Below are positions 22,780 through 63,522 of a stretch of 64,000 nt of DNA, piece by piece. Numbering within the stretch: the first letter of the stretch is position 1; each line of letters opens with the position of its first letter. The notes under the pieces were generated by a model. It was given only the letters and a program-made list of their open reading frames with translations, made no database searches and was not told the DNA's origin. Source of the stretch: Candidatus Saccharimonadota bacterium (GTDB lineage: Bacteria; Patescibacteriota; Saccharimonadia; Saccharimonadales; JACOTW01); assembly GCA_016178135.1 (NCBI GenBank), contig JACOTW010000002.1, positions 13,043 through 77,042 of the forward strand, written 5' to 3'. Made by a program: the position numbers and the translations under genes.

Positions 22780-22780
22780 G

Positions 22781-23839: not shown

Positions 23840-25088
23840 TCAAATACCCGATGGTTGGCATGTCAAGAAACTTAAACAGACTGGTGAGGCAATAATCGGT
23901 CTAACGTATTCCCCGAAGGATGTGGTTGACTCTGGTGGAATCGAAGTCTTACGATCGTCTAATGTTCAACACGGTAGGATTGTACTGGATGATCTAGTAA
24001 GGGTTAATGCAAAAATTCCCGAAAAGATTATTCTTCAAGATGGAGATATTCTAGTATGCGCTAGAAACGGTAGCCGTAGACTAATTGGTAAAAATGCTCG
24101 AATTAATAGACACAATATAGGCAAAACATTTGGTGCTTTTATGTGTGTGTATCGATCAGACAATCCGAACTATATGTATTGGGTATTCCAAACTGAGTCT
24201 TTTAGAAAACAGATTGCACGCGACTTAGGCCCAACGATTAATCAAGTAACGACCGGCAATCTTAATTCGTTTAAGTTTGCATTTCCGAGTGAAGACGAAC
24301 AAGCGAGAATTGTCACGGTTTTAGAAGTTTGGGATGAGTATGTTGAAAAATTAGACAAAAAAATTGAACTCAAAAAGAATATTAAAAAAGGTTTAATGCA
24401 GGATTTACTAACTGGCGAGATTCAAATTCCTGGTTTTAATGGAGAGTGGCAAGAAGTCAAATTGGGCGAAAATGGTGAAACGTACGCAGGCCTGTCGGGT
24501 AAAACAAAAGAAGATTTTGGCCAAGGCAAGCCGTATATTACCTACATGAATATATACTCAAATCCAACAGTTGACCAAAACAACTACGAACTTGTTAAAT
24601 TAGACCATGAAGAATCTCAAAATAAAGTCAAATACGGCGACATTCTATTCACGACCTCTTCTGAAACGCCTGAAGAAGTAGGTATTGCTTCTGTTTATCT
24701 AGGAAATGACAGCGAGCTTTATCTAAACAGCTTCTGTTTTGGGTTTAGATTGAAACAACCGGCTAAGCTTTCTCCAAAATTTGCTCGCCATTATTTCAGA
24801 GGTCAGCAGTTTAGGAAAACAATGACACGCATAGCTCAAGGTGCAAGTCGCTATAATCTTTCGAAAAGATACTTCATGGAGACAAAGATCAGGATACCTG
24901 TAGACATTGCGGAGCAAGAGCGCATTGCCGAACTATTAGACAACATAAGTTTTGATATAAAGCTACTGCACGATAAAAGACAACTTGTCCTTAATCAGAA
25001 AAAGTATTTGGTTAATAATCTTATAAGGGGTGATCTACGAACACCGGAAGACTTACGGATATCTATAAAGGAGATGCAGCATGCTTGA
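23823..25088 (+). CDS. hsdS: type I restriction-modification specificity subunit, full-length (two target recognition domains)
   Basis: 421 aa with two TRDs separated by a central conserved helix (EDEQARIVTVLEVWDEYVEKLDKKIELKK). The C-terminal repeat reads IAEQERIAELLDNISFDIKLL. Confidence 0.88.
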   Translation: MSMNHSQIPDGWHVKKLKQTGEAIIGLTYSPKDVVDSGGIEVLRSSNVQHGRIVLDDLVRVNAKIPEKIILQDGDILVCARNGSRRLIGKNARINRHNIGKTFGAFMCVYRSDNPNYMYWVFQTESFRKQIARDLGPTINQVTTGNLNSFKFAFPSEDEQARIVTVLEVWDEYVEKLDKKIELKKNIKKGLMQDLLTGEIQIPGFNGEWQEVKLGENGETYAGLSGKTKEDFGQGKPYITYMNIYSNPTVDQNNYELVKLDHEESQNKVKYGDILFTTSSETPEEVGIASVYLGNDSELYLNSFCFGFRLKQPAKLSPKFARHYFRGQQFRKTMTRIAQGASRYNLSKRYFMETKIRIPVDIAEQERIAELLDNISFDIKLLHDKRQLVLNQKKYLVNNLIRGDLRTPEDLRISIKEMQHA

Positions 25089-28000
25089 GAATGTTAACTT
25101 TGATGAGGCCAGACAGTCGCAACTTACATTTGTTGAGATGCTTATAAATATGGGTTATGCGTATTTGCCGACAGCGGAGCTTATGCGTCAGCGTAGTGGT
25201 GACACTTCGTACTATCTACTAAAAGAAGTTGCTGCAGAATCTTTGATGCGAATCAATGATTACGAGCACCACGGCCAGACGTACAAGTTTACGGAGAAGG
25301 ACGTTGCCGAGACCATTGATGAGCTAGAAAGCCTCCAGCACGAAGGGTTGATAGATACATCCAAAGCCGTTTACAACACCATAATGCCGCTCAAAGGTGG
25401 TAAAACAATCCGTGTTTTCCATGATGGTAAATATGAGTCTAAAAGTTTCCGTTTTATCGACTTTGAACACCCAGAGAATAACCAATTTCATGTAGCTGTG
25501 GAAGTTGAAATCAGCGCCAAGAGCGGTACCCGCCGTCCTGATATCGTTTGTTACATTAACGGTATTCCGTTTGTCGTGATTGAAAATAAGAAATCGAGTA
25601 CCAATGTATCCGATGCCATAAACCAAATGATTCGCAACCAGGGTCCCGACTATAGCCCTAAGTTTTTTATCTATCCACAACTATTGATAGCTACTAACGG
25701 TAAAGACTTACGCTACGGAACTACCGGAACTCCAGCTGAGTTCTACGTTAACTGGCGGGAAAAAGACCACAGCGCCGAAGAAGTTGACGAAAAAGTACGT
25801 AATCTTATCTCCACCAAAATTGATGATGAACAATACACTCAGTTACTGCAAGATCTAAATGGAAATACTCATGGTCACACTCAGCGCCTTGACCGCAAGC
25901 CAACCGAGCAAGACCGTTCCATAATTGCTCTACTCGATAAAAAACGACTGCTAGATATTACTAAGAATTACATCCTATACGATGGCGTTCAAAAAAAAGT
26001 TATGCGCTACCAGCAATTTTTTGCAATCAACCGTGCATTGAAACGTATTGAAGAGAAAGAACCAACCAGCCACGGTGAACGTCGTAAGGGCGGTATCATC
26101 TGGCATACGCAGGGCTCCGGCAAGTCATTGACGATGGTAATGTTCGTTCGCGCTCTAATTGAAGACCCCCGCATAATAAACCCACGCATATTAATTGTTA
26201 CCGACCGTAAAGACTTGGATAGGCAAATTCTTGGGACTTTCCAAAACGCCGGACTCAAGAAAAAAGTGAAGCAAGCCCGCAGTGGTGAGCACTTGCTTGA
26301 ACTCATAAAGTCTAAAGACACAAGCGTTGTCACGACATTAATCCATAAGTTCCAGTCGGCGTCCCGCCGTCGGGCAGACTTTATAGACAACGACCAAAAC
26401 ATTTTTGTACTTATTGACGAGGCGCACCGCTCGCAGCAGGGTGATGCCAATATAGAGATGAATCGTACTATCCCGAACGCCTGCTACATTGCCTTCACTG
26501 GCACCCCACTTCTTAAACGTGAGCAATCACAAAACAAGTTCGGTAGCTTCATTGATAAATACACAATTGATGATGCTCTCGAAGACAATATAGTTCTGCC
26601 ACTCATTTACGAAGGTCGCTACGTAGACCTGCATCAGGATAAAAAAGAGATTGATCGCCAAGCAGACCGTGTCATGGAAGATATGCCTGAATATATTCGA
26701 AAGAAGTTACAAGAATCGGTACAAAAAAGTATCATACAAGATAGTCCAAAACGTATTAATGAAATTGCATATGATATAGAAAAACATTATATTAGTCGCT
26801 TCCAAGGGTATGGACTGAAGGCGCAGATAGTGGCACCGTCCAAATTCTCAGCCATGCTGTTCCAAAAATACTTTAATGATAGTGGCAAGATAAATACAGC
26901 CCTTGTTATATCTGACGAAAATGGCATCATTGACGACAAAGACGAGCACAAAAAAGAAGTCGAAGGCTACCTAAAAGATATTAAGGATAAATACCAAAGC
27001 CTACTTAGCTACGAAAAGGAAGTCATCGATAGCTTCAAGTACAACGACGAAGGTGTAGAAATCCTGATTGTTGTCGACAAACTCCTCACGGGCTTCGATG
27101 CACCGCGTAATACGGTACTTTACCTCGCCAAAGAGCTGAGAGACCATAACTTGCTCCAGGCAATCGCTCGTGTTAACCGCCTGTATGACAACCCAGCTTT
27201 ACCAAAAACAGCGGGTTTCATTATCGACTATTCTGAAAATGCCCAGAACATCCATACTGCTATGCAGCTGTTTGGTAATTACGACGAGACTGACGTTAAA
27301 GGTGCGCTGATTGATGTCAACGAAAAGATACAAGACCTTGAAACCAGCTACGGTGCCTTACACGACATATTCAACGGTATTCAAAGCGACGACGAAGCCT
27401 ACCTACAGCACCTTAACGATGATCCAACTCGCAAAGAATTCTATGCCGCACTTAATAAGTTCGTGCAGGAATTTAGCGAGTGTATGGTATTGCAAGACTT
27501 TGCTCATGAGTTTGAAGACCTTGATATTTATCGTCTAGAACTAAAGAAGTTCATGGAACTTCGAAAAACTGCCACTTTGATGCACGAAGAGCGGGTTGAT
27601 TTTTCGAAGTACAAGAATGCGCTAGTGAAAATAATGGACGACAACATAAAAGCAGACGAAGCTGAGTTATTGACCGAAGAAATTAACATTACTGACAAGG
27701 AATTGTTTGATAAGGCAATTGAAGAAATTGGCTCCGACAAATCCAAGGCCGAAGCTATTGCCGCACAAACCAAACGAACAATTACCGAGAAGTTTAACAC
27801 TGACCCCGAATTTTACGGCAAGTTTTCGAAGAAGATTAGCGAAATCCTTGACGCTATGCGAGCAAAGAAGCTTGCCGACATTGAAGCTCTAAAACAACTT
27901 AAGCTCATAACAGATGAGGTATTAAATAAAAAGGACGATACGTTGCCTTCGGTAGTCGCTGAAACGCCCGGGGTTGATATTCTATATCGCAACCTCCGCG

Positions 28001-28254
28001 CTCATCTTGATTTGGAAGAAATTACTTATATAAAAACCGTACTTGATATATACCAAGTACTAAGCAAAAATGCTCGAGTAGATTGGTGGAAGAATCACGA
28101 AATGAAACGAATCATGCGGAGCAGTATTGACGATTACCTATACGATGAAGTGAAAGTGAAGCTTGGCGTCAACCTTACTGTCGATCAAATTGATTCAATT
28201 GTAGATGACGTCATGAAACTGGCAGAAAATAACTACGAGATATTTGTTAAATGA
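25081..28254 (+). CDS. hsdR: type I restriction enzyme R subunit (helicase-nuclease)
   Basis: The nuclease motif reads RRPDIVCYINGIPFVVIENK. SF2 motifs HTQGSGKS and IDEAHRSQ are present. 1057 aa. Confidence 0.92.
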   Translation: MLENVNFDEARQSQLTFVEMLINMGYAYLPTAELMRQRSGDTSYYLLKEVAAESLMRINDYEHHGQTYKFTEKDVAETIDELESLQHEGLIDTSKAVYNTIMPLKGGKTIRVFHDGKYESKSFRFIDFEHPENNQFHVAVEVEISAKSGTRRPDIVCYINGIPFVVIENKKSSTNVSDAINQMIRNQGPDYSPKFFIYPQLLIATNGKDLRYGTTGTPAEFYVNWREKDHSAEEVDEKVRNLISTKIDDEQYTQLLQDLNGNTHGHTQRLDRKPTEQDRSIIALLDKKRLLDITKNYILYDGVQKKVMRYQQFFAINRALKRIEEKEPTSHGERRKGGIIWHTQGSGKSLTMVMFVRALIEDPRIINPRILIVTDRKDLDRQILGTFQNAGLKKKVKQARSGEHLLELIKSKDTSVVTTLIHKFQSASRRRADFIDNDQNIFVLIDEAHRSQQGDANIEMNRTIPNACYIAFTGTPLLKREQSQNKFGSFIDKYTIDDALEDNIVLPLIYEGRYVDLHQDKKEIDRQADRVMEDMPEYIRKKLQESVQKSIIQDSPKRINEIAYDIEKHYISRFQGYGLKAQIVAPSKFSAMLFQKYFNDSGKINTALVISDENGIIDDKDEHKKEVEGYLKDIKDKYQSLLSYEKEVIDSFKYNDEGVEILIVVDKLLTGFDAPRNTVLYLAKELRDHNLLQAIARVNRLYDNPALPKTAGFIIDYSENAQNIHTAMQLFGNYDETDVKGALIDVNEKIQDLETSYGALHDIFNGIQSDDEAYLQHLNDDPTRKEFYAALNKFVQEFSECMVLQDFAHEFEDLDIYRLELKKFMELRKTATLMHEERVDFSKYKNALVKIMDDNIKADEAELLTEEINITDKELFDKAIEEIGSDKSKAEAIAAQTKRTITEKFNTDPEFYGKFSKKISEILDAMRAKKLADIEALKQLKLITDEVLNKKDDTLPSVVAETPGVDILYRNLRAHLDLEEITYIKTVLDIYQVLSKNARVDWWKNHEMKRIMRSSIDDYLYDEVKVKLGVNLTVDQIDSIVDDVMKLAENNYEIFVK

Positions 28255-29381: not shown

Positions 29382-29410
29382 TTGACAAGTGTTGTAAAAT
29401 TGGCTATAAT
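29382..29410 (+). promoter_or_regulatory. Consensus sigma-70-type promoter upstream of ftsK
   Basis: TTGACA at 29382-29387, a 17-nt spacer, then TATAAT at 29405-29410. Confidence 0.55.
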
Positions 29411-33544: not shown

Positions 33545-34108
33545 ATGGCATTTGGACCAACTGATCTTAAAAAAGGGCAGGTGTTTCAGTTGGATAATAT
33601 TCCGTATCGAGTGGTTGAGTACGGTCAAAAGGTGATGGGTCGTGGGGGCTCAATTGTAAACGTCAAAATAAAGAGTCTACTGAATGGTAAAGTTCTGGAT
33701 AAAACTTTCAAGGGAAATGAATCCATTGAACCCGCTGATGTAACTAATAAAAATGTGCAATATCTCTACAGCGATGCCAATTCATTTTTCTTTATGGATG
33801 AACAAACTTACGAGCAATTTGAACTACCAGTTACTGATATGTTAGATCAAACAGGTTACCTGAAAGAAGGTGATCGTGTTTTGGTTCAGCTGTTTAATGA
33901 TAGGGTTATAAATATTGAATTACCCAAAAATGTTCCCCTCAAGGTAACTTATGCTGAAACCGCGGTCAAAGGCGACACAAGCTCAGCAATAACAAAAGAC
34001 GCGACCGTAGAGACGGGCATTATTGTCAAAGTACCTGCGTTTGTAAAAGTTGGCGATATTATTTCGGTTGATACCGCGACTGGGACGTACCGTGAGCGTG
34101 TCAAATAA
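33545..34108 (+). CDS. efp: elongation factor P
   Basis: 187 aa. DLKKGQVFQLDNIPYRVVEY...GRGGSIVNVKIKSLLNGK is present, with an AAGGAG Shine-Dalgarno upstream. Confidence 0.9.
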   Translation: MAFGPTDLKKGQVFQLDNIPYRVVEYGQKVMGRGGSIVNVKIKSLLNGKVLDKTFKGNESIEPADVTNKNVQYLYSDANSFFFMDEQTYEQFELPVTDMLDQTGYLKEGDRVLVQLFNDRVINIELPKNVPLKVTYAETAVKGDTSSAITKDATVETGIIVKVPAFVKVGDIISVDTATGTYRERVK

Positions 34109-34988
34109 GTATCGCCTAGACAAAGAATTACTGCGTCGAGGATTAGTTGTATCTAGGTCGCAAGCTGAGGATATTATTCGCAGGGGTTTTGTAAGCGTAG
34201 CTGGTATAAGCGTTACCAAACCCGGCTTGTTGGTATCAGAAAATGTACAAATCGTCATAAAATCACGTGTTAGTTTTGTATCACGAGCGGGCGAAAAACT
34301 TCATTCAGTCTTAGATATCCTTCAACTGGATTTGTCGGACAAAGTTGTGTTGGATGTCGGTTCGTCAACTGGCGGTTTTACCGAACTGGCTTTACGCATG
34401 GGGGCAAAAAAAGTTATTGCGGTAGATGTTGGAACCAATCAAATGCATCCCAGCTTGCGTAATGATCCCCGAATTGAACTTCACGAAAAAACCGACATCC
34501 GCAATTATGTGAAAGGATCGACCACTCACATAGACGTTGTTCTGATTGATGTTAGTTTTATATCATTGCGTCAAATATTACCGTACTGCGCTACACTGAT
34601 TGATCGCAATTCGGTGATCGTGGCTATGGCAAAACCGCAGTTTGAGGCTAGACTGGACTTACCCAAAGCTCCCCCATCCCCAGACCAACTAATCTCAAGC
34701 GGTAGCGGTCTGCCTTCTATCAATGTAGCTAAGGCTACCTCTCCTTCAGTCAAACCACTATCAACTCGAGCTGATTTGCCCTGGGAACGGGCGATTTTGC
34801 GTAAGTCCAGTAGAGACATAGTTAAACACAAGGGAGTAATAAAGAACGATAAAATGCGTAGGGAGATACTAAAACACCTTGAAGATAGCATACAAAATTT
34901 GTTCATTATTATCGACAAGGCTGATTCTGGAGTTGCCGGCGCTCGCGGCAATAGGGAGCGCTTTTATTTGTTACGAAAAGCCGGGTAG
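34098..34988 (+). CDS. tlyA: TlyA-like S4-domain rRNA 2'-O-methyltransferase carrying an in-frame type B element
   Basis: The S4 domain reads RLDKELLRRGLVVSRSQAEDIIRRGFVSV. The FtsJ-like AdoMet motif is VLDVGSSTGGFTE, followed by KPQFEA. The GTG start overlaps the efp stop. About 54 codons (34652-34812) are element-derived. Confidence 0.8.
   Translation: MSNKYRLDKELLRRGLVVSRSQAEDIIRRGFVSVAGISVTKPGLLVSENVQIVIKSRVSFVSRAGEKLHSVLDILQLDLSDKVVLDVGSSTGGFTELALRMGAKKVIAVDVGTNQMHPSLRNDPRIELHEKTDIRNYVKGSTTHIDVVLIDVSFISLRQILPYCATLIDRNSVIVAMAKPQFEARLDLPKAPPSPDQLISSGSGLPSINVAKATSPSVKPLSTRADLPWERAILRKSSRDIVKHKGVIKNDKMRREILKHLEDSIQNLFIIIDKADSGVAGARGNRERFYLLRKAG
34652..34812 (-). repeat. Type B palindromic element, copy 3 (inside tlyA, in frame)
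   Basis: Runs ACTGGACTTACCCAAAGCTCCCCCATCCCCAGACC...GGGCGATTTTGCGTAAGTCCAGTA. It translates as LDLPKAPPSPDQ...WERAILRKSS without a stop. Confidence 0.9.
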
Positions 34989-38159: not shown

Positions 38160-38203
38160 TTAACCCCATCTTTCTTTTCCATATGTTAATTCTAACAGTA
38201 ATA

Positions 38204-38366
38204 TACTGGACTTACGCAAAACTCCCCCATCCCCAGACCAACTAATCCCAAGCGGTAGCGGTCTGTCTTCTCTCGATGTAGCTAAGGCTACCTCTCCTTC
38301 AGTCAAACCACTCCCAACTCGAGCTGATTTAGCCTGGGAACGGGCAATTTTGCGACAGGTCCAGTA
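38204..38366 (-). repeat. Type B palindromic element, copy 4
   Basis: Runs TACTGGACTTACGCAAAACTCCCCCATCCCCAGACC...GGGCAATTTTGCGACAGGTCCAGTA. Confidence 0.9.
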
Positions 38367-38385
38367 GCAGTTACTAGGGGCTGGG

Positions 38386-38414
38386 TTGCGGATATTAGGG
38401 AATTATGCTATAAT
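38386..38414 (+). promoter_or_regulatory. Candidate extended -10 promoter
   Basis: TTGCGG, a 17-nt spacer, then TGcTATAAT. The ATG at 38424 is 9 nt downstream, so the leader would be very short or absent. Confidence 0.4.
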
Positions 38415-38423
38415 TTGGCTATT

Positions 38424-39446
38424 ATGGATCATCCAGATTTATCCCCAGATTACATTACCGACAGACTTCATGAAACTGGAGTTGTAGATGTAGATGTTAC
38501 ACCGTTCATATCAGAGCAGCATGACGAGCCTAGTAACTTGCCAAACCCAGAGATTATTGATACCGAAACACCAGCAACGCCAAAGAATGACGGCATGTCC
38601 CGCCGTGGTTTTTTAAGGCTTGCTGGTATTGCCGCTACGACATTGTTGGCGGGTAGTTCGGGTAATAATATTTATAGCGGTACTAACGAACACCCCAGCC
38701 TGATCAGTGAACAACATCACAAACTACCTAACACCGAAGTCATAAAATCAGTCGCGGAAACAATGCCAAAACCCCCCGAATTTTCCGAACTTAGTCTTAG
38801 AATAAATAGTCCGGAAACTCCAGACGGGGCATTTATGGGAGCAATGACAGTCAGATATGCCGATAACCCAGATCGTAGCCTGCAATCTGAAGAAGGCTTA
38901 ATTGATAAATACTGGCAATCAAAAGGTTTACCACGACCAGCCGTCAATAACCCATCAGTGCACCGTTTAAGGGTAGGAGGATCTATCACCAGCGAAAATG
39001 TCAAGGCGTTTGACCCGCTATTGGATGAAGCCGCGGTTGTCCACAAAGGTACGGATAGCGGGTTGATTTTGATAGCCCAACACAATATCACACAAGTTAA
39101 AGGGCCTGTTGAGCTCGATGGTGCTATTTACGACCACTTGCAGATGGGTATTAATGAATACGTTATGCCTGGCGATACATTAGAAATAGTTTTGTCGAAT
39201 CAACAACAGCCAGGTTTTTTGGATGTGTTTAGGTTTGTTGCCACTGGCTCCAGGGTTGTAGCTTATCCTGAAGATTTAGAAACAGTGTATGAATACAATC
39301 CAGAAGAGGGCAAAGAACAAGCAGGGGATTTAGCTGTTCTGAAAACCTATATTTGTTGGCCGCCAGGGCAGAAAAGGTACAGATTGGTTGTTGAATGGGA
39401 GCCTCAAAATACCGCGATTGTGCACGGAACAGTTAATCCGGTATAA
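38424..39446 (+). CDS. secreted sortase-like protein (tentative) with a twin-arginine-like signal
   Basis: An internal MSRRGFLRLAGIAATTLLAGS gives an alternative start at 38595. LIAQHN...GDTLEIVL...LKTYICWPPGQKRYRLVVEW resembles the sortase H...GD...(L)xTC...R pattern. Confidence 0.4.
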   Translation: MDHPDLSPDYITDRLHETGVVDVDVTPFISEQHDEPSNLPNPEIIDTETPATPKNDGMSRRGFLRLAGIAATTLLAGSSGNNIYSGTNEHPSLISEQHHKLPNTEVIKSVAETMPKPPEFSELSLRINSPETPDGAFMGAMTVRYADNPDRSLQSEEGLIDKYWQSKGLPRPAVNNPSVHRLRVGGSITSENVKAFDPLLDEAAVVHKGTDSGLILIAQHNITQVKGPVELDGAIYDHLQMGINEYVMPGDTLEIVLSNQQQPGFLDVFRFVATGSRVVAYPEDLETVYEYNPEEGKEQAGDLAVLKTYICWPPGQKRYRLVVEWEPQNTAIVHGTVNPV

Positions 39447-39472
39447 TTTTTGAGCAGTTATGGGGTGGGTTA

Positions 39473-39501
39473 TTGACAATAATCCTAATATGATGTACAA
39501 T
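39473..39501 (+). promoter_or_regulatory. Near-consensus sigma-70 promoter with a leader of about 200 nt
   Basis: TTGACA at 39473-39478, a 17-nt spacer, then TACAAT at 39496-39501. The first plausible start codon downstream is at 39710. Confidence 0.5.
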
Positions 39502-39709
39502 ATATCATAGTCGACAGTTATTTGAGGAGGAGCTGGCAGTTTTTGCCGCGCCGGAACTTGTGCTGTTGACGTACATTGACATGTCAGACTGGAATATATA
39601 GCGATTTTGGGGTCGCCTAGTGTGTTTGAAACTTGTTTGAAGTATCGAACATAACAGGCGGCCCTAAATGGGGAAGCTGGCGGTAACGCCACAAGACAGA
39701 AAGGTAACA

Positions 39710-40291
39710 ATGAAAAAAATTATTGTTATCGCAATCTTGTTGATGGCATTACTTGCCATCAACTCAACTCTTCCCTCCGCTTCTGCGGAAGGAAGCCAAA
39801 GCAGCGTTACCCTTTCGGGGGCAACGCTTTGTGGTGAGGCCGTGACGATGTCCGTCATGGCTTCTGGATTGGAGCCCAGTGTGGGCTTCAGTTTGGAAGA
39901 CCTCGACGACCAATGGGCGTCTTGGGGTATAGGAGGAGTCGGTTTTGACACCGACTCAGAAGGGGGTTTCACCGGTTCGGTGAAGCTTGTAGACGTTGGC
40001 GGGATCGTCCCAACACCAACACGGTTGGTGTTGTCAGTTTTTACCGACGATCCAGATGCTAACGATCCGTGGGTGTCGGAAGACATTACAGTTAGCGTTG
40101 CTAACTGTAATGCGCCACCGACCACACAGCCACCAACAACGGAGCCACCGACCACACAGCCACCAACAACGGAGCCACCGACCACACAGCCACCAACAAC
40201 GGAGCCACCGACCACACAGCCACCAACAACGGAGCCACCGACCATCAAGAAATCATCGAAGCCAAAAACGGCCTTGATGACGACCTTGTGA
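39710..40291 (+). CDS. secreted repeat protein (signal peptide plus PTTQPPTTE repeats)
   Basis: The signal peptide is MKKIIVIAILLMALLAINSTLPSASAEG. C-terminal (PPTTQPPTTE)x4 repeats and a basic tail follow. The gene is visibly more GC-rich than its surroundings. Confidence 0.65.
   Translation: MKKIIVIAILLMALLAINSTLPSASAEGSQSSVTLSGATLCGEAVTMSVMASGLEPSVGFSLEDLDDQWASWGIGGVGFDTDSEGGFTGSVKLVDVGGIVPTPTRLVLSVFTDDPDANDPWVSEDITVSVANCNAPPTTQPPTTEPPTTQPPTTEPPTTQPPTTEPPTTQPPTTEPPTIKKSSKPKTALMTTL
40114..40244 (+). repeat. Perfect 30-bp tandem repeat, about 4.4 copies
   Basis: The unit GCCACCGACCACACAGCCACCAACAACGGA is repeated head-to-tail without a mismatch inside the CDS. Confidence 0.95.
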
Positions 40292-40487
40292 GGTTCGGGG
40301 GAGAGAGCACATACGCGCTCTTATCATGATGGCTTGCCATCGTGTATGTTCTCATTACGAGACACTCCCCCCGACTTCACCCCCCCCGCGACAATTGCCT
40401 ACCGGCAATACCCCCAGTCTGACATGTCGCAATCCCCCTTATTTTTTTTGCTTGTGTTTTAAAAGTGTCATATAATGAATAGTGATT

Positions 40488-41075
40488 ATGTTTAGCATGA
40501 ATAAGCTCAAATCAATATTCCGTGGCACTTTAACAGTTACTCATAGAGTCTTTAAAAAGCATTGGTTTAAAAACAAGCGCAATATAGTCATATTGGTGGC
40601 TATAGTTGGGCTGGTGGGTTTTTTGGGCTGGTGGTATTTTTCAAAACCCCAGACCGCGTATAGTCCAGTACCTAAATCACCGCTAGAAAAATACACTAGC
40701 GTTACACCGGTTCAAAAAGCCGACACGCTGGCATTTTATGGCGATTACCAGGGTAGCCAGAAGTTGCTGGATGATGAAATTGCCAAAACCAAGGACGATG
40801 CCAGTAAAAGCAAATTATATAACGCCAAATGCCTGATAGCCTTTAATCATAAACATTACGATGACTCTCTGACTTTTGCCCAGGCTGCAGAAAAACTGGC
40901 CCCAAGTCGCATTACGGCGTTGTATATAGCCAAGAGTAGCGAGGCTCTACATAACAAAAAACTGGCTCTGGAGTATTATAAAAAAGTGATTGAACGTACT
41001 CCGCAACAAATGAAAGACCTAGATGAAACCATCAACGTCGATAATGAAGCCAAGATAAAAGAGTTAAGCAAATGA
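40488..41075 (+). CDS. membrane-anchored TPR-like protein
   Basis: One TM segment (IVILVAIVGLVGFLGWWYF) is followed by helical repeats (AKCLIAFNHKHYDDSLTFAQAAEKLAP...ALEYYKKVIE). TATAAT at 40471-40476 lies just upstream. Confidence 0.5.
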   Translation: MFSMNKLKSIFRGTLTVTHRVFKKHWFKNKRNIVILVAIVGLVGFLGWWYFSKPQTAYSPVPKSPLEKYTSVTPVQKADTLAFYGDYQGSQKLLDDEIAKTKDDASKSKLYNAKCLIAFNHKHYDDSLTFAQAAEKLAPSRITALYIAKSSEALHNKKLALEYYKKVIERTPQQMKDLDETINVDNEAKIKELSK

Positions 41076-43660
41076 GCCAGGAGAAATCGTTACATGCCCT
41101 ATCATCTGGCTCAAAAGCGGGTAATTTTGCCATGAAGCGAAGATTCTGGATGAGTTCTAAAAAATTTGTATTGCTGGGTATAGCGGGGTTTATTAGTCTG
41201 GCGGTTGTCGGCTTGTTGATGCCAGTCAAGGTACAAGCTGATCCGTTTGGGATACCTTGGGGGACTGGTTATTTTACTGGCGCCGGACCAATGTCTGGTG
41301 GTTTGGGCTCGGTTATAGCCGGGGGCATCGCCAGTACTACGGACAAAGCTACCTTTATTCAAAATATTAAAGACGAACTGGGCAATCCTTCTTCTGCTCC
41401 GAAACGAACTGGCGCGGCCTTTATTATTCAGACAATGCGCGGCGCCCCTAGTGGTGTACCCAATCCGCCAAGCGCCGCAGAGATAGCCGATTGGGAAGCG
41501 CGAGTCAATAGTGCAGCCATAACACTAAGCGTTGAGGACTTCTATTTTGATTACAATTCCGGCTACATGAAAGGTGTTGCCGACGACGACGCTTTCTATC
41601 AATCATCAGATACGAGAGTATCCATAGTTTTTCGGCATAACGGCACGGTGGTGTATGCCATAAAGATAGATTGTGGCAATGTTGTCGGGGATCTTCCTGG
41701 TCTGCCACCAATTGATGTGGGTGGCGGCGGCGGCGGTGGCGGCGGTGGCGGTGGTGGCGGCACACAGCTACCCGTCGGCTTTTTAGATGTTGCCAATTGC
41801 AGCACCATAGAGGGCTGGGCTCAAGACCCGGATGATCTGACGGTCAGCATACAGGTACACATTTATATTGGTGGTCCGGCTGGCACGGCGGGTATTACGC
41901 CCTATGCCGCTAATGCTAATATATATCGTGCAGACGTTGGAAATCATGGCTTTGTCTTTACTACACCACCTGGTGTATCTGGGGACGTCTACGTTTACGG
42001 CATCGATATACAAGGCGTGGGTAACCCTGTGCTTACAAATTCCCCAATCAATATAGGTGTTTGCCCTGCACGGGGCCCTACGCCGATAGTTACGACAAAC
42101 TCAACATCGGCGTTTTGTAATGCTGCTACGGGTTTTGGGGTAGCGAATGTTAGCTGGCCGGCCGGTACTTTGACCGGAAGCCTAGGTATTTATATTGACG
42201 TTTCCACCGATCCTGGCTTCGGTAGTTTCTATAAACACGGTCCGCTTTCCGGTACAACTGATGTTATCCCCAACGGCTATGTAGATAGTGTTTCTGGCGC
42301 GCCTATGCCGTCTTTGCCAGGGGGGGTTACCTATTTTGTTCGGCTTTTCAGCGATGCTTATAGCCCGGTTCATTCTAATTTGACTTCATTTGTCGCTCCG
42401 GTTTGTCCGCCCTCCACCCCGACAGCTAGTGCTTCCTGTATCGGTAGCGCTTCCGGCGCTGCTATTACATGGTCCGGTAGCCCCGATGCTATTGGTCCTA
42501 GCGGAGCAGTCGGCTTTTATGTGGATCTGTCTACGGATTCAGCCTTCGGCAGTTTTTATACCAAGTGGGCCGGTAATGTTAACTCTACGCAAGGGCCAAG
42601 TGGATTTGTTTTGAATGGATCAGGGACGCCCATGCCTTCTATGGTGGCTGGTACTTGGTATACTCGTGTTAATAATGGTCAGTTTTCCAGCGTAACATCC
42701 TTTACGACATTGGATTGTCGTGCTCCTTATATAAGAGCTTATGGTGGTGATGTCAGAGCTGGCGATAGTTTTCCTGATAGTAGTGGCGTATGTAGCCCTG
42801 TGGCCAGTGCCGACATAAAAGCATTCAATGACTCGGCAAATAATTATGCCGGATCTGGTAGTCAGTCTGCCGTATTTGCTACTGGCAGTATCACGGAATT
42901 TGTATCATCCGCCATGAGTTTGAGTACATCTATAGCACAGGTACCCAAAGGGCTAACCTTTGCTAACAGTTCTGGGATATATGGTGGTAATTTTGGCAGC
43001 AATGAATGTTTGCCAGACTTTTTTGCCAATGCCCAAAAAGTTCCTTCTCCCACTAGTGGCCCTAGAACTATTGATATTGGTTTAATAGAGGGCGCTTCTC
43101 CTGCTGGTCCCAAAGAGGGTAAATTTTATGTAAAGGGACCAGGTTTAACAACCGTCATCGGTCAATCCGGCCCTATATTTAACAGAACCAGAATAACAGT
43201 TTACGCAGATGGTGACGTAGTTATAAGAGATAAGAACATTATATATTCCGGCGGGTATAATGCGCCAAGAGATATACCGGCTATATATGTTATCGCGAAA
43301 GGCAATATCTATATCGATAAATCAATAACCCAGCTGGATGGTGTGTATGTGTCACAAATGGGAACAATCTATACTTGCTCAAACGGACCTGCCATACCAG
43401 GAGATCCCTGGCTGGTGGCTAATTGTAATTCAAAACTTGTCGTAAACGGATCTTTGATGGCACCAAACATTAAATTTTTACGACTGGCGAACAACTTGAG
43501 TAATGCCAGCCATGGCGAGGACGCTTATTCCAATAATGCCGCCGAAACATTTAACTTTACTCCTGAATTTTGGATAACGCATTTTCCGGTATGGGGCAGT
43601 AATTCGGGTGGTTCTTCGGGGTCATACGACATGATCACTAATCTGCCACCAGTTTTATAG
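41072..43660 (+). CDS. large secreted/surface protein with a poly-glycine linker
   Basis: 862 aa with an N-terminal TM/signal (FVLLGIAGFISLAVVGLLMPV) and a G13 run encoded by a GGN repeat at about 41718-41760. Two similar domains repeat the pattern (G/S)xxIxWxG..xxG...G(I/F)Y(I/V)D(V/L)STD(P/S)(G/A)FGSFY. No family recognised. Confidence 0.6.
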   Translation: MSQEKSLHALSSGSKAGNFAMKRRFWMSSKKFVLLGIAGFISLAVVGLLMPVKVQADPFGIPWGTGYFTGAGPMSGGLGSVIAGGIASTTDKATFIQNIKDELGNPSSAPKRTGAAFIIQTMRGAPSGVPNPPSAAEIADWEARVNSAAITLSVEDFYFDYNSGYMKGVADDDAFYQSSDTRVSIVFRHNGTVVYAIKIDCGNVVGDLPGLPPIDVGGGGGGGGGGGGGGTQLPVGFLDVANCSTIEGWAQDPDDLTVSIQVHIYIGGPAGTAGITPYAANANIYRADVGNHGFVFTTPPGVSGDVYVYGIDIQGVGNPVLTNSPINIGVCPARGPTPIVTTNSTSAFCNAATGFGVANVSWPAGTLTGSLGIYIDVSTDPGFGSFYKHGPLSGTTDVIPNGYVDSVSGAPMPSLPGGVTYFVRLFSDAYSPVHSNLTSFVAPVCPPSTPTASASCIGSASGAAITWSGSPDAIGPSGAVGFYVDLSTDSAFGSFYTKWAGNVNSTQGPSGFVLNGSGTPMPSMVAGTWYTRVNNGQFSSVTSFTTLDCRAPYIRAYGGDVRAGDSFPDSSGVCSPVASADIKAFNDSANNYAGSGSQSAVFATGSITEFVSSAMSLSTSIAQVPKGLTFANSSGIYGGNFGSNECLPDFFANAQKVPSPTSGPRTIDIGLIEGASPAGPKEGKFYVKGPGLTTVIGQSGPIFNRTRITVYADGDVVIRDKNIIYSGGYNAPRDIPAIYVIAKGNIYIDKSITQLDGVYVSQMGTIYTCSNGPAIPGDPWLVANCNSKLVVNGSLMAPNIKFLRLANNLSNASHGEDAYSNNAAETFNFTPEFWITHFPVWGSNSGGSSGSYDMITNLPPVL

Positions 43661-45071: not shown

Positions 45072-45085
45072 TTATGCTGGTACTG

Positions 45086-45247
45086 TACTGGACTTACGCA
45101 AAGCTCCCCCATCCCCAGACCAATTCATCTTGGCTGGTAGCGGTCTGTCTTCTCTCGATGTAGCTAAGGCTACCTCTCCTTCAGATAAAACAGTTTTCGC
45201 TCGAGATAATTCACTCTGGGAACGGACGATTTTGCATAAGTCCAGTG
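45086..45247 (-). repeat. Type B palindromic element, copy 5 (mosaic of subfamilies)
   Basis: Runs TACTGGACTTACGCAAAGCTCCCCCATCCCCAGACC...GGACGATTTTGCATAAGTCCAGTG. It lies 14 bp from the type A copy. Confidence 0.9.
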
Positions 45248-45272
45248 TACTACTGTCATCAGAGGTTATGTC

Positions 45273-49832: not shown

Positions 49833-49842
49833 AAAATGAGTA

Positions 49843-50040
49843 TACTGGACTTACGCAAAATCACCCGTTCCCAGGCTAAACTGGACTTACGCAAAATCGT
49901 CCGTTCCCAGAGTGAATTATTTCGAGCGAAAACTGTTTTATCTGAAGGAGAGGTAGCCTTAGCTACATCGAAAGAAGGCAGACCGCTACCAGCCGAGATG
50001 AATTGGTCTTGGGATGGGGGAGCTTTGCGTAAGTCCAGTA
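49843..50040 (+). repeat. Type B palindromic element, copy 6 (duplicated left terminus, mosaic)
   Basis: TACTGGACTTACGCAAAATCACCCGTTCCCAGGCTAAAC is followed at once by a second TGGACTTACGCAAAATCGTCCGTTCCCAG..., and the copy ends ...GAGCTTTGCGTAAGTCCAGTA. Confidence 0.9.
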
Positions 50041-50086
50041 TACAATTAGTACAATCCATGATTAGCCGGCATATTGGAGCTTCGGT

Positions 50087-51307
50087 ATGTTGACCTACAA
50101 ATATATCGCTAAAGATATGACTAGTGGCCAGAAGATCAAGGCCCAGGTTCAGGCTGATAGTGAGCAAGAAGCAGCTAAATTGATTCATGCTCAAGGCTTT
50201 ACTCCACTCAATATTACTTTGGAGGGTGCTGGTGTTGGGAGCATATTTAAGCGTTTTGGTAATCATGTAAAAACCAAAGACAAGGTTTTGTTTTCGCGTC
50301 AATTATCTACGCTTATCAATGCTGGATTGCCAATAATTCAAAGTTTGCGCAGTGTTTTAAGCCAAACACAGAGTAAGCCATTAAAAGCAGTAATTAATCA
50401 AGTAATAACTGATGTAGAAGGCGGTTCGGCGCTTTCCGTGTCTTTAGGGCGGCATCCGGCTGTTTTTAACGATGTTTTCACTAGTCTGATTGCTGCCGGC
50501 GAGGTTTCTGGTACGCTGGATGCCGCGTTGGATCGGCTTGCTATTCAGCAAGAAAAAGACGCTGAAGTAATCAGTAAAGTTCGTGGCGCCATGATTTATC
50601 CAATCATTGTCGTTATTGTTATGATGGGCGTTGTTGGTTTTATGGTTGTTACGGTCTTGCCGCAAGTGGAGATTTTATATGACGGCTTACCGGGCTCTAA
50701 ATTGCCGTTTGTTACGGTGGCTCTCTTGGCGCTGTCGCATTTTGTCATAAAATTTTGGTGGCTTGTTCTCGTGTCGTTGGTTGTATTCGTACTTTTCACG
50801 ACGCGCTGGGCCAGGACATTGGCGGGTAAGCGAGTATTTGATAAGCTCAAAATGAAAAGCTGGCCAATCGGCCCATTGTTCATGAAACTTTATATGGCGC
50901 GTTTTGCCCGAACCGGCACTACACTGGTATCCAGTGGCGTACCACTGATACAAATGCTGGAAATAACATCTGACGCTATAGACAACGTTCATATTGCAGA
51001 ATCAATCAAGGCGGCCATAGAAAAGGTCAAGGGCGGTAAAGCGCTATCGACTGCTCTTGAAAATGATCCTAACTTTTTAGAACTGGTACCGAATATGTTA
51101 AAAATTGGTGAACAATCAGGTTCTATAGAGCAAATGCTAGCCAAAACAGCCGACTATTACGAAAAAGAGGTAGACAACCAAATCAAAGCCATATCAACCA
51201 TTATCGAACCAGTCATGATGGTATTGATAGGTGGTATGGCGTTTATCATTGTAGCGGCCGTATTGTTGCCAATTTATGGCCTGGCTGGCCAAAATATCAT
51301 CAAATAG
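50087..51307 (+). CDS. pilC: type IV pilus platform protein PilC (GspF family)
   Basis: 406 aa with two GspF repeats (FSRQLSTLINAGLPIIQSL / FARTGTTLVSSGVPLIQML) and three TM regions. Confidence 0.9.
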   Translation: MLTYKYIAKDMTSGQKIKAQVQADSEQEAAKLIHAQGFTPLNITLEGAGVGSIFKRFGNHVKTKDKVLFSRQLSTLINAGLPIIQSLRSVLSQTQSKPLKAVINQVITDVEGGSALSVSLGRHPAVFNDVFTSLIAAGEVSGTLDAALDRLAIQQEKDAEVISKVRGAMIYPIIVVIVMMGVVGFMVVTVLPQVEILYDGLPGSKLPFVTVALLALSHFVIKFWWLVLVSLVVFVLFTTRWARTLAGKRVFDKLKMKSWPIGPLFMKLYMARFARTGTTLVSSGVPLIQMLEITSDAIDNVHIAESIKAAIEKVKGGKALSTALENDPNFLELVPNMLKIGEQSGSIEQMLAKTADYYEKEVDNQIKAISTIIEPVMMVLIGGMAFIIVAAVLLPIYGLAGQNIIK

Positions 51308-52052: not shown

Positions 52053-53042
52053 ATGATTAACGGTATAATTATAGTTTTTGTTGGATTGGTTTTGGGTAGT
52101 TTTGTCAACGCGTTGGTTTGGCGGCTACATCTACTGGCCTTACGCAAAGCTCCCTCATCCCCAGACCGACTAACCTCGGCTACAAACAGTTTTTCCTCTC
52201 TCGATGTACCTTCAGGTACCTCTCCTTCGGATAAAACTGTTTTCGCTCGAGCTGATTCGCTCTGGGAACGAGGGATTTTGCGTAAATCCAGCCTACAATC
52301 CACCAAACATCCAAAAAAACCTGATAATAAAAAATATTCGATTGTTAGTGGGCGTAGCATGTGTCCAGATTGCCGACACCAGTTGGCCTGGTATGATTTG
52401 ATCCCAGTCATTAGTTGGCTAGGTCTTCGGGGGCGCTGTCGCTATTGCCATAGACCAATAAGTTGGCAGTATCCATTAGTGGAAATACTAACTGCTGTAA
52501 CTTTTATCACATCGTATGTTTATTGGCCTTACTCTTGGTCTGCTATTGGTATTACGTTATTTATTGTTTGGATCGTGTCGCTTATCAGTTTCATGGCGCT
52601 TGCCGTCTATGATTTGCGTTGGTTTATTTTGCCGGATAAAATTGTATTTCCTTTAGTCGGACTTGCGGCCATCCAGATCATCATGCGGACTGTATTATAT
52701 GGCGAAATAAGTCCTATACTAGGTGGTCTAATAGGTGTTGTTACGCTTGCTGGTTTATTTTATGCACTGTTCCAATTCTCAAAAGGACAGTGGATTGGTG
52801 GAGGAGATGTAAAGCTGGCAGTAGCTCTAGGTATGTTGGCAGGCGGAGCGGCCGAGAGCGTGTTACTGCTATTTTTAGCATCGTTAATTGGTACTTTGGT
52901 GAGTTTACCACTTCTGTTAAGTAAGAAACTAAAAAAGAATAGCCGGATTCCATTCGGCCCCTTACTTCTTATGGCTACCTTTATCGTCTATATTTTTGGG
53001 TCTGACATCATTAATTGGCTTAAGCTGTATTATTTTTATTAG
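52053..53042 (+). CDS. pilD: prepilin peptidase (A24 family) carrying an in-frame type B element
   Basis: LGSFVNALVWRL...CPDCRHQLAWYDLIPVISWL...CRYC forms a zinc-finger-like region. GGGDVKL is an active-site Asp motif. About 53 codons (52132-52291) are element-derived. Confidence 0.85.
   Translation: MINGIIIVFVGLVLGSFVNALVWRLHLLALRKAPSSPDRLTSATNSFSSLDVPSGTSPSDKTVFARADSLWERGILRKSSLQSTKHPKKPDNKKYSIVSGRSMCPDCRHQLAWYDLIPVISWLGLRGRCRYCHRPISWQYPLVEILTAVTFITSYVYWPYSWSAIGITLFIVWIVSLISFMALAVYDLRWFILPDKIVFPLVGLAAIQIIMRTVLYGEISPILGGLIGVVTLAGLFYALFQFSKGQWIGGGDVKLAVALGMLAGGAAESVLLLFLASLIGTLVSLPLLLSKKLKKNSRIPFGPLLLMATFIVYIFGSDIINWLKLYYFY
52132..52291 (-). repeat. Type B palindromic element, copy 7 (inside pilD, in frame)
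   Basis: Runs TACTGGCCTTACGCAAAGCTCCCTCATCCCCAGACC...GAGGGATTTTGCGTAAATCCAG. It translates as LLALRKAPSSPDRL...WERGILRKSS. Confidence 0.9.
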
Positions 53043-53179: not shown

Positions 53180-54289
53180 ATGGACAGTCATAAACAGCCA
53201 CAAGCATCCCATAGATCTTATAGTCAGGGCAGTTTACTCGACTCACCCAAAATCGCCCGTTCCCGGAGTGAATTATCTCGAGCGAAAACTGTTTTATCTG
53301 AAAGAGGGGTACCTGAAGGTACATCGAGAGAGGAAAAACTGTTTGTAGCCGAGGTTAGTCGATCTGGCGATGGAGGAGTTTTGGGTAAGTCGAGTATAGG
53401 CTATACGATTGTTGAAGTTATGATTTTTCTGGCTATTTCCAGTGCCATACTTGTTAGTGCTTTATTGTTGGTAGGTGGGCAACAACAAAAAACGCAGTTC
53501 ACCCAATCTTTAAGAGATATTGATTCTCATATTCGTGACGTAATGAATGACGTGTCAGCTGGTATTTATAGTAATACTGGCAATTTTCAGTGCCTGGCAG
53601 ATAATGCCGGCAGTGCTCCAGTTATATCGGCTGGTGCCGATAAACAAGGAGCAAATGTCAGCTGTATTTACATCGGTAAGGTTTTACAGTTTGGACCGGC
53701 TTCCAGTCCAGAGGATTTCAATGTGTTTAGTGTTGCCGGCCGTCAATTTCGAGGCGCGCCAATTGCCTCAAAGTTAGTTTCAGATATAACAGAGTCTAAG
53801 CCAGTGCCAATAGCGCCGAATATCGCTCATCTTGCCATGATTGGTCCAGGATTAGATGCTACAGATTACAATAAACTCGATTACGGACTTACTATAAAAG
53901 ACAATAGTGATGGGGCTCATCCGGGCTTAAGTTATGATAATGGTAGTGGCCCGCAGGCCATAGGGGCATTTGGCTTTTTTTCTAACTTTGTTACTTATCC
54001 TGACGGTAGTGCAAGTCCTGAATCAGGTCGACAGTTTACCGATATTTGGGTGATCCCTGCCAGTGCTTATGGCGATGATGCGCGAAATGTTGCCGACGAC
54101 ATCATTGATATTGGTGGTTTAAGCAGTTCAGCTGCTACCTCGTTTAAAAATCCGGCTAAAGGTATTACTTTATGTTTTTTGAGTAGCGGAACAGATCAAT
54201 ATGGCAAAATAACTATCGGTGATAATAATCAAAGACTTGCTACTACGTTGTCAGTAGGTTACAGAGGAGATGGGAGTATTTGTACATGA
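53180..54289 (+). CDS. pilin-like protein (prepilin-type N-terminal domain) with an element-derived leader
   Basis: The mature N-terminus would be G|YTIVEVMIFLAISSAILV. The 72 codons before it are mostly type B element. An alternative TTG start at 53381 is preceded by GGAGGA and would give the leader MGKSSIG. Confidence 0.7.
   Translation: MDSHKQPQASHRSYSQGSLLDSPKIARSRSELSRAKTVLSERGVPEGTSREEKLFVAEVSRSGDGGVLGKSSIGYTIVEVMIFLAISSAILVSALLLVGGQQQKTQFTQSLRDIDSHIRDVMNDVSAGIYSNTGNFQCLADNAGSAPVISAGADKQGANVSCIYIGKVLQFGPASSPEDFNVFSVAGRQFRGAPIASKLVSDITESKPVPIAPNIAHLAMIGPGLDATDYNKLDYGLTIKDNSDGAHPGLSYDNGSGPQAIGAFGFFSNFVTYPDGSASPESGRQFTDIWVIPASAYGDDARNVADDIIDIGGLSSSAATSFKNPAKGITLCFLSSGTDQYGKITIGDNNQRLATTLSVGYRGDGSICT
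53235..53396 (+). repeat. Type B palindromic element, copy 8 (in the 5' part of the pilin-like gene)
   Basis: Runs TACTCGACTCACCCAAAATCGCCCGTTCCCGGAGTG...GATGGAGGAGTTTTGGGTAAGTCGAGTA. Confidence 0.9.
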
Positions 54290-56666: not shown

Positions 56667-56670
56667 TCTT

Positions 56671-56831
56671 TACTGGACTTACGCAAAATCCCTTGTTCCC
56701 AGGGTGAATCAGCTCGAGCGAAAACAGTTTTGTCTGAAGGAGAGGTACCCAGGAGGTACATCGAGAGAAGAAAAACTGTTTGTAGCCGAGGTTAGTCGGT
56801 CTGGGAACGAGGGATTTTGCGTAAGTCCAGT
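56671..56831 (+). repeat. Type B palindromic element, copy 10
   Basis: Runs TACTGGACTTACGCAAAATCCCTTGTTCCCAGGGTGAATCAGCTCGAGCG...GAGGGATTTTGCGTAAGTCCAGT. Confidence 0.9.
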
Positions 56832-56854
56832 TTAGGAATTAGTTTATAAGACTT

Positions 56855-59038: not shown

Positions 59039-59122
59039 AACCTTATTGTACGATATATTTCCACTTGACCAGTATGTATGACCCTCCGGACCGTTCCATG
59101 CAACAGAGATAATAATCGTGTA

Positions 59123-59235
59123 TACTGGACCTGTCGCAAAATCGTCCGTTCCCAGGACGAATCAGCCCGAACGGAAACTGTTTGTAGTCGAGATTATTTA
59201 GTCCGGGATACAGGAGAGCTTTGCGTGAGTCCAGC
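59123..59235 (+). repeat. Type B palindromic element, copy 11 (short)
   Basis: Runs TACTGGACCTGTCGCAAAATCGTCCGTTCCCAGG...GAGAGCTTTGCGTGAGTCCAGCA. It lies in the divergent xer/ndk intergenic region. Confidence 0.8.
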
Positions 59236-59272
59236 ATAGATACATCAAAATTAACAATAAATAAGGACATCA

Positions 59273-61705: not shown

Positions 61706-61724
61706 TGGACCAGTAGTTCAGTAT

Positions 61725-63506: not shown

Positions 63507-63522
63507 TAATTGGAGTGATCTT

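Follow-up and report, generated by a model that had tools for sequence, protein, structure and literature searches.

Excess folding potential bounded by a 15-nt inverted repeat at a strain-variable secreted-protein gene in Saccharibacteria

Bacterial 5' stabilisers such as the ermC and aprE leaders need a stem-loop at the very 5' end of the RNA. In the hbs mRNA of Bacillus subtilis a 14-bp interaction linking the 5' UTR with the 3' UTR limits attack by RNase Y and RNase J1 (PMC5737220), and the 514-nt RNAIII of Staphylococcus aureus encodes a peptide of 26 aa (reviewed in PMC12612679). Among surface antigens, the switching of MBA in Ureaplasma has been demonstrated to involve inversions between several loci together with a recombinase (PMC3047005), and the building of hairpins by template switching is likewise a documented mechanism (PMC8794818). 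Here, we report on a locus in a 64,000-nucleotide stretch of a Candidatus Saccharimonadota genome (GCA_016178135.1; the whole stretch is referred to as the window) that can be compared with each of these systems. Saccharibacteria are tiny episymbionts using the standard genetic code, and their surface and secreted proteins mediate the contact with the bacteria that are their hosts. To our knowledge, almost nothing is known about the control of mRNA lifetime in bacteria of the candidate phyla radiation (CPR), and selection for stability throughout a coding region has rarely been documented in cellular mRNAs.

All of the anatomy that a first-pass annotation of the locus had listed was recovered (Table 1), including a near-perfect promoter about 210 nt before the ATG (208 nt by our count), 4.4 mismatch-free copies of a 30-bp unit encoding PPTTQPPTTE, C6 and C8 tracts in the 3' flank, and open frames on both strands. 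The 15-bp inverted repeats that it had seen bracketing the gene, with the promoter outside them, are real and exact; only the placement of the right arm was off by one nucleotide. These features are direct observations, as are the differences between strains and the excess folding energy, with its limits, described below.

Table 1. Features of the locus in window coordinates, with z-scores of folding energy against dinucleotide shuffles where segments were scored. L002 is the second strain (GCA_040960765.1).
Feature	Position	Strand	z	Basis or remark
End of upstream gene			+0.2	
Promoter region			-0.5	
Sigma-70-type promoter TTGACA-17-TACAAT	39473-39501	+		11/12 matches; TTGACA 39473-39478, 17-nt spacer, TACAAT 39496-39501; intergenic; 100% conserved in L002
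5' hairpin	39508-39577	+	-2.75	
5'-terminal stem-loop	39510-39570	+		9-bp closing stem GUCGACAGU/GCUGUUGAC with inner hairpin; predicted fold
Whole 851 nt, arm-bounded		+	-11.5	
Left arm, 15-nt inverted repeat (5' UTR)	39578-39592	+		GACATGTCAGACTGG; contains 10-bp palindrome TGACATGTCA
Leader	39593-39709	+	-5.4	
Long leader hairpin (13 + 9 + 4 bp)	39606-39668	+		predicted fold
Antisense ORF, 194 aa	39664-40248	-		open frame; no Shine-Dalgarno, no signal peptide
Shine-Dalgarno AAAGG (39700-39704) and ATG (39710)	39700-39730	+		read from sequence; predicted fold
Coding sequence, 193 aa	39710-40291	+		signal peptide, Shine-Dalgarno, same-species allele P0002
Coding region, non-repeat part		+	-9.8	
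Predicted hairpin, 18 bp	39861-39899			
Predicted hairpin, 11 bp	39964-39988			
Allelic hypervariable patch	39976-40084	+		109 bp vs 106 bp in L002, about half identical, net in-frame indel
Predicted hairpin, 10 bp	40011-40033			
Perfect 13-bp hairpin, 3-nt loop	40084-40112	+		CATTACAGTTAGC GTT GCTAACTGTAATG; inside conserved island
30-bp tandem repeat (repeat array)	40114-40244	+	-0.3	period 30, 4.4 copies, 100% matches; unit is 10 codons
Tail and 3' UTR	40245-40413	+	-6.4	
3' UTR branched structure	40288-40380	+		begins at stop codon; predicted fold
C6 tract	40367-40372			unchanged in L002
C8 tract	40380-40387	+		read directly; TC7 in L002
Two C5 runs	40411-40415, 40434-40438			
Right arm, 15-nt inverted repeat (3' UTR)	40414-40428	+		exact complement of left arm GACATGTCAGACTGG
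After right arm	40429-40496		+0.3	
T8 run	40442-40449			follows right arm
Nearest downstream -10 box TATAAT	40471-40476			
Next gene			-1.0	

Around the locus the genes are arranged as follows: a Crp-family regulator (- strand), a bPH-domain protein, ychF (- strand), a 343-aa protein that bears a Tat-like signal, then the 193-aa gene, a membrane TPR protein, an 862-aa protein, and pilM with the full type IV pilus cluster, which places the 193-aa gene just upstream of the pilus operon. The (GGC)n tract encoding poly-Gly in the 862-aa neighbour has equal length in both strains. The combination of TPR protein, large protein and pil operon is conserved in more distant Saccharibacteria, and the interval between ychF and this group holds unrelated genes in distant, syntenic members (L003-L005 and L008), so that the 193-aa gene occupies a variable interval. 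A scan of the genome collection with the alignment of the TPR neighbour found four distant loci, none of them carrying the 193-aa gene, while the same scan with the 862-aa neighbour gave no match; a genome of intermediate distance, which could separate insertion from deletion of the gene, was not found among those searched. Among 5.8 billion protein clusters the sole match extending past the low-complexity linker was the 216-aa allele of GCA_040960765.1, and a full HMMER search with the N-terminal 136 aa against 1.84 billion representatives returned the protein itself only. The N-terminal domain found no match when metagenomes and viral sequences were scanned with it, and neither did DNA similarity searches of phages and plasmids. 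Judged by these searches, the 193-aa gene is a species-restricted orphan, with no homolog outside its own species.

The promoter lies directly 3' of the stop codon of the upstream gene (39446). Promoter-like sites with at least 11/12 matches occur five times in the whole window, and such a match is therefore not rare by itself; what counts is its position in a 263-bp gap and its direction toward the gene. Transcription is predicted to start at about 39507-39510, some 7 nt past the promoter, and the 5'-terminal stem-loop begins 0-3 nt from this predicted 5' end. The Shine-Dalgarno sequence and the ATG are partly inside a predicted A/U-rich hairpin of 11 bp (39703-39713 pairing with 39720-39730).

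The encoded protein begins with a signal peptide of canonical type, MKKIIVIAILLMALLAINSTLPSASA (39710-39787), with KK, a hydrophobic core and an ASA/EG cleavage site as read from the translation. It continues with a predicted all-beta domain of about 109 aa carrying one Cys near each end (Cys41 and Cys133), for which an AlphaFold2 model built from two sequences is all-beta at low confidence (pLDDT 55.7), and it ends with the PPTTQPPTTE linker and a Lys-rich tail of 15 aa. The variable surface protein proposed at first pass holds in so far as the product is of a secreted or surface type, with a signal peptide and a Pro/Thr linker, and varies between strains; an anchor is lacking, as neither LPXTG nor a C-terminal transmembrane segment is present and the protein ends in ...PPTIKKSSKPKTALMTTL with no hydrophobic segment. 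The 3' flank does contain an LPTGN motif, but solely in a different frame. Read-through of the stop codon was considered and rejected, the 57 open codons past the TGA being attributed to C-rich composition. That the frame is coding is supported by the signal peptide, the Shine-Dalgarno sequence, the in-frame allelic indel and repeat differences confined to third codon positions, the last of which cannot tell the strands apart since the antisense frame shares its third codon positions with the sense frame. The antisense ORF is open in the second strain too and has no Pfam match. Most likely it arose as a side effect of composition (neither Tyr nor His occurs in the sense protein) and of palindromes, and antisense coding was rejected because start context, signal peptide and homolog are all missing.

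Comparison between strains revealed a marked and localized variability. Over 20.6 kb, two mismatched positions separate contig JACPYE010000003.1 (GCA_016196105.1) from the window, and ychF holds both of them. A Logan contig present in three runs matches with 100% identity over 38325-40143, including the left arm in unchanged orientation. The second strain, L002, is syntenic in a background of about 99% identity and shows zero differences over 38500-39975, a stretch covering two thirds of the gene together with its promoter, leader and left arm. There follows a hypervariable patch, not spotted in the first reading of the sequence, which lies within the beta domain just upstream of the repeat and across which the reading frame and the pattern of hydrophobic residues are preserved. 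A 34-bp island (40084-40117), 100% conserved, separates the patch from the repeat array, which holds 5.3 units in L002. Every unit of the L002 repeat carries the same five synonymous third-position differences, which indicates concerted evolution of the array. Only two SNPs are found 3' of the repeat, one falling in a bulge of the predicted 3' UTR structure and the other changing a G-C pair to G-U, and the right arm is identical. Variability of the protein at the strain level, including the number of repeats, is thereby demonstrated, and the length variation that had been suspected from the repeat does occur. A silent-cassette source of the pilS or vls type was rejected, as neither patch allele has a further copy in the 64-kb window or in L002. 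A diversity-generating retroelement was rejected likewise: no second patch copy was found in 64 + 20 kb, none of the annotated genes shows a reverse transcriptase domain, and what distinguishes the alleles is indels and changes of all base types rather than changes at adenine positions alone.

The leader, which the first-pass annotation had singled out for folding, is predicted to be strongly structured, and this predicted structure proved to extend far beyond it. Sliding windows of 150 nt across 36-44 kb gave z-scores of -3.2 to -7.7 at about 39550-40150 and 40250-40450 and of about 0 in the surroundings; folded singly, the leader and the 3' flank scored -4.75 and -5.0. Segments were scored by MFE against dinucleotide shuffles (Table 1) and, for the coding part, also against protein-preserving shuffles of synonymous codons. 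Since the flanking segments score near chance, the folding block begins where transcription is predicted to start and ends with the right arm. The synonymous shuffles gave a z of -8.4 for the coding part (MFE -189.5 against a mean of -137.2) and -8.7 for the L002 allele, with eight control gene segments ranging from +1.1 to -2.9, so that the amino-acid sequence does not account for the excess structure. Some 18 hairpins are predicted to follow one another across the leader, the coding region and the 3' UTR, several of them perfect stems with 3-nt loops; the C-rich, G-poor repeat array is the only unstructured part of the predicted transcript. The divergent patch reaches a z of about -4 in both alleles through different hairpins with partly different partners. 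Elsewhere in the window, and likewise in other Saccharibacteria loci (about 90 kb) and metagenome loci (395 kb), no comparable structured run was found (all comparison sequence about 550 kb), and an unrelated surface-protein gene at the equivalent position in a relative is unstructured.

The inverted repeat coincides with the limits of this block. In the ensemble model of the full transcript the arms pair with a probability of 0.99-1.0, and forbidding their pairing costs 20.6 kcal/mol. Taken alone, a 15-bp inverted repeat is only weakly significant, because 24% of first-order shuffles of the window hold a perfect one, 15 bp or longer, within 3 kb (mean 0.27). The possibility raised at first pass that the 15-mer is a common dispersed motif did not hold, as a search of the window with up to three mismatches found no further copy except one match at chance level. 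Nor do the arms belong with the abundant palindromic (MITE-like) repeat family of about 168 bp in the window: a profile search of 39400-40500 (nhmmer --max, E<=10) was negative, and a 12/13 resemblance to one terminal-repeat variant is at chance level. A canonical intrinsic terminator is absent after the right arm, the T8 run beginning at least 8 nt past the helix.

The reading that we favour, tentatively and with a confidence a little short of even, is that of a hyper-structured, long-lived and probably RNase-resistant mRNA for a secreted, strain-variable protein, in which the arms form the closing helix. As the structure spans the interval from the predicted start to the right arm, before the T8 run, the transcript is most simply seen as the selected object. 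The locus would be a single transcription unit encoding a species-restricted secreted protein, with selection keeping nearly all of its RNA paired. RNA synthesis would begin about 7 nt past the promoter and run straight into the 5'-terminal stem-loop; the left arm of 15 nt, which belongs to the 5' UTR, would pair with its complement in the 3' UTR and close an 851-nt domain of a transcript of about 920 nt, with the Pro/Thr repeat alone staying single-stranded. By analogy with hbs and the 5'-stem-loop stabilisers, the folded mRNA may be long-lived and nuclease-resistant in an organism carrying RNase J and PNPase, the genes for both of which are encoded in the window. We infer that the folding takes place in RNA, that one predicted transcript carries both arms and that the fold serves stability. 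The protein would diversify between strains by in-frame gain or loss of 30-bp units and by replacement of the 109-bp patch, the latter through recombination with a divergent allele or template-switch events at hairpins, while the C tracts, rather than acting as slippage switches, would pair with G-runs or form part of a C-rich 3' UTR. Several observations tell against this mRNA reading. The transcript ends are predictions, the frequency of 15-bp inverted repeats in shuffled windows is considerable, the helix is not part of a canonical terminator, and the arms, identical in both strains (two alleles of one species), allow no comparison of covariation. A bolder variant, which we regard as unlikely, is that of a self-closing, ornate RNA of about 0.9 kb, encoded in DNA and doubling as mRNA, with the fold itself under selection and possibly the first example of its kind; this could be a regulatory or scaffold RNA, or one made to survive outside the episymbiont cell, with the strain-variable protein and the C-rich single-stranded parts as its functional surfaces.

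A further objection to the mRNA reading is that both strands fold about equally (MFE -401 on the + and -399 on the - strand; mean window z -5.2 and -4.3) and that G-U pairs make up only 8% of all pairs, most being Watson-Crick, which would fit an origin as palindromes at the DNA level. Energies of this kind do not discriminate between RNA and single-stranded DNA. Template switching at quasi-palindromes during replication, or hairpins and cruciforms of single-stranded DNA, could have built the stems, the 15-bp repeat and the patch with no function of the RNA involved. The perfect stems with 3-nt loops are as expected from this mechanism, as are patch alleles that share one arm-like core with different partners. 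Such an origin would, on the other hand, leave unexplained why the block has its edges at the predicted transcription start and the right arm, and why similar blocks are absent from the other sequence compared. The long leader hairpin is moreover specific to the + strand, its stretch being more structured there (z -5.1 against -1.4), and the equally extreme z of both alleles points to maintenance rather than accident. DNA-level palindromes lacking any RNA function are thus, in our estimate, no likelier than the ornate RNA, yet template switching is a serious competitor of the mRNA reading or may have contributed to the locus, above all where differences cluster in the patch.

Somewhat more doubtful is the notion that the mRNA also acts as a regulator in the manner of RNAIII, with unpaired C-rich runs, namely C8, both C5 runs and the repeat array, seeding on G-rich ribosome-binding sites. 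The architecture of about 18 hairpins with a closing helix of the 5' and 3' ends is RNAIII-like, four C-runs lie within 75 nt of the 3' UTR, and both dual-function RNAs and 3' UTR regulators have been reviewed (PMC12612679, PMC7821165). Against such a dual function, the C6 tract and part of the C8 tract are paired in the model, the RNA is carried by one species only, and no Rfam match was found. Rfam 15 at gathering thresholds gave only tRNAs elsewhere in the window and nothing at the locus, so that the scan proposed at first pass for the leader produced no family match; at E<=10 the best E-value over 39300-40600 was 0.12, far below gathering scores.

The segment is GC-richer than its surroundings, as had been pointed out at first pass (53.1% between the arms and 42.8% in the whole window; GC3 of the gene 0.54 and 0.36-0.45 in neighbouring genes). 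This composition, the absence of the gene from every other genome searched and the different genes that relatives hold between ychF and the pilus operon would be consistent with imported DNA bounded by the arms, brought in by a mobile element, now defunct, that had these arms as its terminal inverted repeats. We consider such an import very unlikely: the GC content rises from about 39780 and not from the left arm, no transposase, target-site duplication or second copy was found anywhere, phage and plasmid matches are missing, and the arms are unrelated to the palindromic repeat family of the genome itself.

An on/off switch by inversion had been suggested at first pass, in which a recombinase would flip 39593-40413 between the arms and thereby couple or uncouple the gene from a fixed promoter. 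The perfect 15-bp arms with the promoter outside them, the palindromic core in each arm and the two open strands all invite this idea, and there is a precedent in the inversion-switched, repeat-containing surface antigen MBA of Ureaplasma (PMC3047005). Arms and orientation are, however, the same in the window, GCA_016196105.1, GCA_040960765.1 and, as far as it reaches, the Logan contig, a comparison of low power in that these are consensus assemblies, in which a rare subpopulation would not show. The search for an invertase nearby, also suggested, found none: in the Pfam annotation, which covered most of 5.5-61.6 kb and a few genes elsewhere in the window, the 64 kb show a single recombinase, an Xer-like gene carrying an intein (56855-59038), 16 kb away. 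The antisense ORF has neither a Shine-Dalgarno sequence nor a signal peptide, the flipped orientation puts no credible start site behind the promoter, and the coincidence of the arms with the edges of the extreme-folding block suggests a simpler role for them. Inversion is hence a very improbable explanation, and the least probable of all, close to negligible, is the suggestion that length changes of the C tracts lying between the gene and the next operon modulate that pilus operon, since tract lengths are identical in the assemblies (the sole difference, in C8, being a C>T substitution), the tracts lie outside any promoter spacer or coding region, with 84-104 nt between them and the one good -10 box downstream, and C6 is predicted to pair with a G-run at 40297-40303, just past the stop codon.

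Gene-flanking inverted repeats and homopolymers thus need not signal phase variation, and a tempting misreading of the locus is corrected. The 193-aa gene is a candidate for strain-specific interaction, because it lies upstream of the pilus operon and differs between near-identical strains. A cellular coding gene with about 52 kcal/mol of structure beyond the need of its protein, bounded exactly by a helix of the 5' and 3' UTRs, is rare. If the fold is real in vivo, it would offer a natural model for the overlay of coding and RNA-structure constraints and an insight into the control of mRNA lifetime in CPR bacteria.

Among described systems, hbs is like this locus in its pairing of UTRs (Braun, Durand and Condon 2017, PMC5737220), the predicted complementarity here being perfect over 15 nt and thus at least as long as the 14 nt in hbs. 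Unlike in hbs, the duplex, here predicted from sequence only, belongs to a species-specific gene for a secreted protein and encloses a coding region packed with hairpins (z -8 to -10), which has not been reported for hbs. RNAIII resembles the predicted fold in its many hairpins, closure by pairing of the ends, a secreted product and C-rich motifs, but the RNA described here would be about 920 nt long and encode 193 aa, and it has no sequence or Rfam relationship to RNAIII. Ureaplasma MBA (PMC3047005) shares the signal peptide, the C-terminal tandem repeat, a copy number varying between strains and inverted repeats at the locus; unlike MBA, the gene is found in one orientation, with no partner locus, nearby recombinase, or membrane or wall anchor. 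Template-switch hairpins (PMC8794818) are similar in their perfect stems with short loops and in clustered multi-nucleotide differences between close relatives, but that mechanism accounts for the origin of hairpins and not for a run of 850 nt that is restricted to one transcription unit and retained by both divergent alleles. There is thus a precedent for each component, whether secreted proteins with a variable number of repeats, pairing of the 5' and 3' UTRs or structured leaders; what stands out is their combination, together with the degree of coding-region structure, which both divergent alleles retain.

Downstream of the 193-aa repeat protein gene (39710-40291, plus strand), its reading frame remains open for 57 further codons past the TGA (40292-40462), and a different frame of the 3' flank (40326-40475) reads ...PPTSPPPRQLPTGN..., an LPXTG-like motif that is followed by no hydrophobic anchor. 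The C-rich composition probably accounts for both the open frame and the motif, although they could instead be what is left of a wall anchor that has been lost. The orphan protein encoded upstream (343 aa, 38415-39446, plus strand) had no Pfam match and carries a twin-arginine-like signal, SRRGFLRLAGIAATTLLAGS, preceded by about 60 N-terminal residues; either its start codon has been called too early or a cytoplasmic extension is present. In the pilus operon downstream, the 862-aa protein contains an uninterrupted stretch of 14 glycines encoded by a (GGC/GGT)n tract (41720-41761), which is equal in length in the window and in the syntenic locus of the second strain, GCA_040960765.1, with one synonymous change.

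A second, shorter block of strong folding potential, of about 350 nt and with z down to -8.9, was found in the same genome just past the 3' end of the window (2401-2750 of locus L007), where it separates tgt from a 546-aa gene. The matching contig JACPYE010000003.1 of GCA_016196105.1 ends at window position ~5525; positions 1-5524 lie outside it, so the window must derive from a different assembly of that organism. In the restriction-modification region the gene order is hsdM, Shedu (SduA) and the second hsdS; hsdR comes next, together with a gene for a YgjP-like peptidase. According to its Pfam domains, the Xer-like tyrosine recombinase encoded at 56855-59038 (minus strand, 727 aa) is split by an intein that contains a LAGLIDADG endonuclease.

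Dispersed across the window is a MITE-like palindromic element of ~168 bp with terminal inverted repeats, ACTGGACTTACGCAAAATC..., of which at least 14 copies, full and partial, occur in the 64 kb with pairwise identities of 68-93% (see table). The second strain carries an additional ~170 bp at window position 38286, indicating that insertions of the element are polymorphic between strains. Its 19-nt terminal sequence is present in 54 metagenome stretches, often several times per contig, and a profile of the family gave 92 matches in such stretches.

Copies of the ~168-bp palindromic element and other features of the window
Feature	Position	Strand	Remark
Element copy	34647-34816
Element copy	38199-38367
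Element copy	45082-45250
Element copy	49877-50044
Element copy	52128-52296
Element copy	53232-53401
Element copy	55477-55645
Element copy	56667-56836
Element copy	61721-61890
Element copy	63339-63510
Element, partial copy	near 6500-6823
Element, partial copy	near 8798-8919
Element, partial copy	near 59119-59240
Element, partial copy	near 63888-64000
TlyA-like S4 + FtsJ methyltransferase gene	34098-34988		conserved housekeeping gene
Type I restriction-modification system	20699-28254		two specificity genes
hsdS, half-size	20699-21268
hsdS, full	23823-25088
Shedu (SduA) defence gene	22781-23839		between hsdM and second hsdS
Perfect-consensus promoter TTGACA-17-TATAAT	29382-29410	+	~60 nt upstream of ftsK-like gene at 29473

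Some copies of the element overlap small called ORFs, such as the 85-aa 'gene' at 49836-50093, and one (34647-34816) lies in frame within the TlyA-like gene, contributing about 55 extra amino acids that are missing from the homologue on a contig from related Saccharibacteria (locus L005, 2176-2904). In this respect, the copy within the TlyA-like gene resembles the in-frame palindromic elements of Rickettsia.
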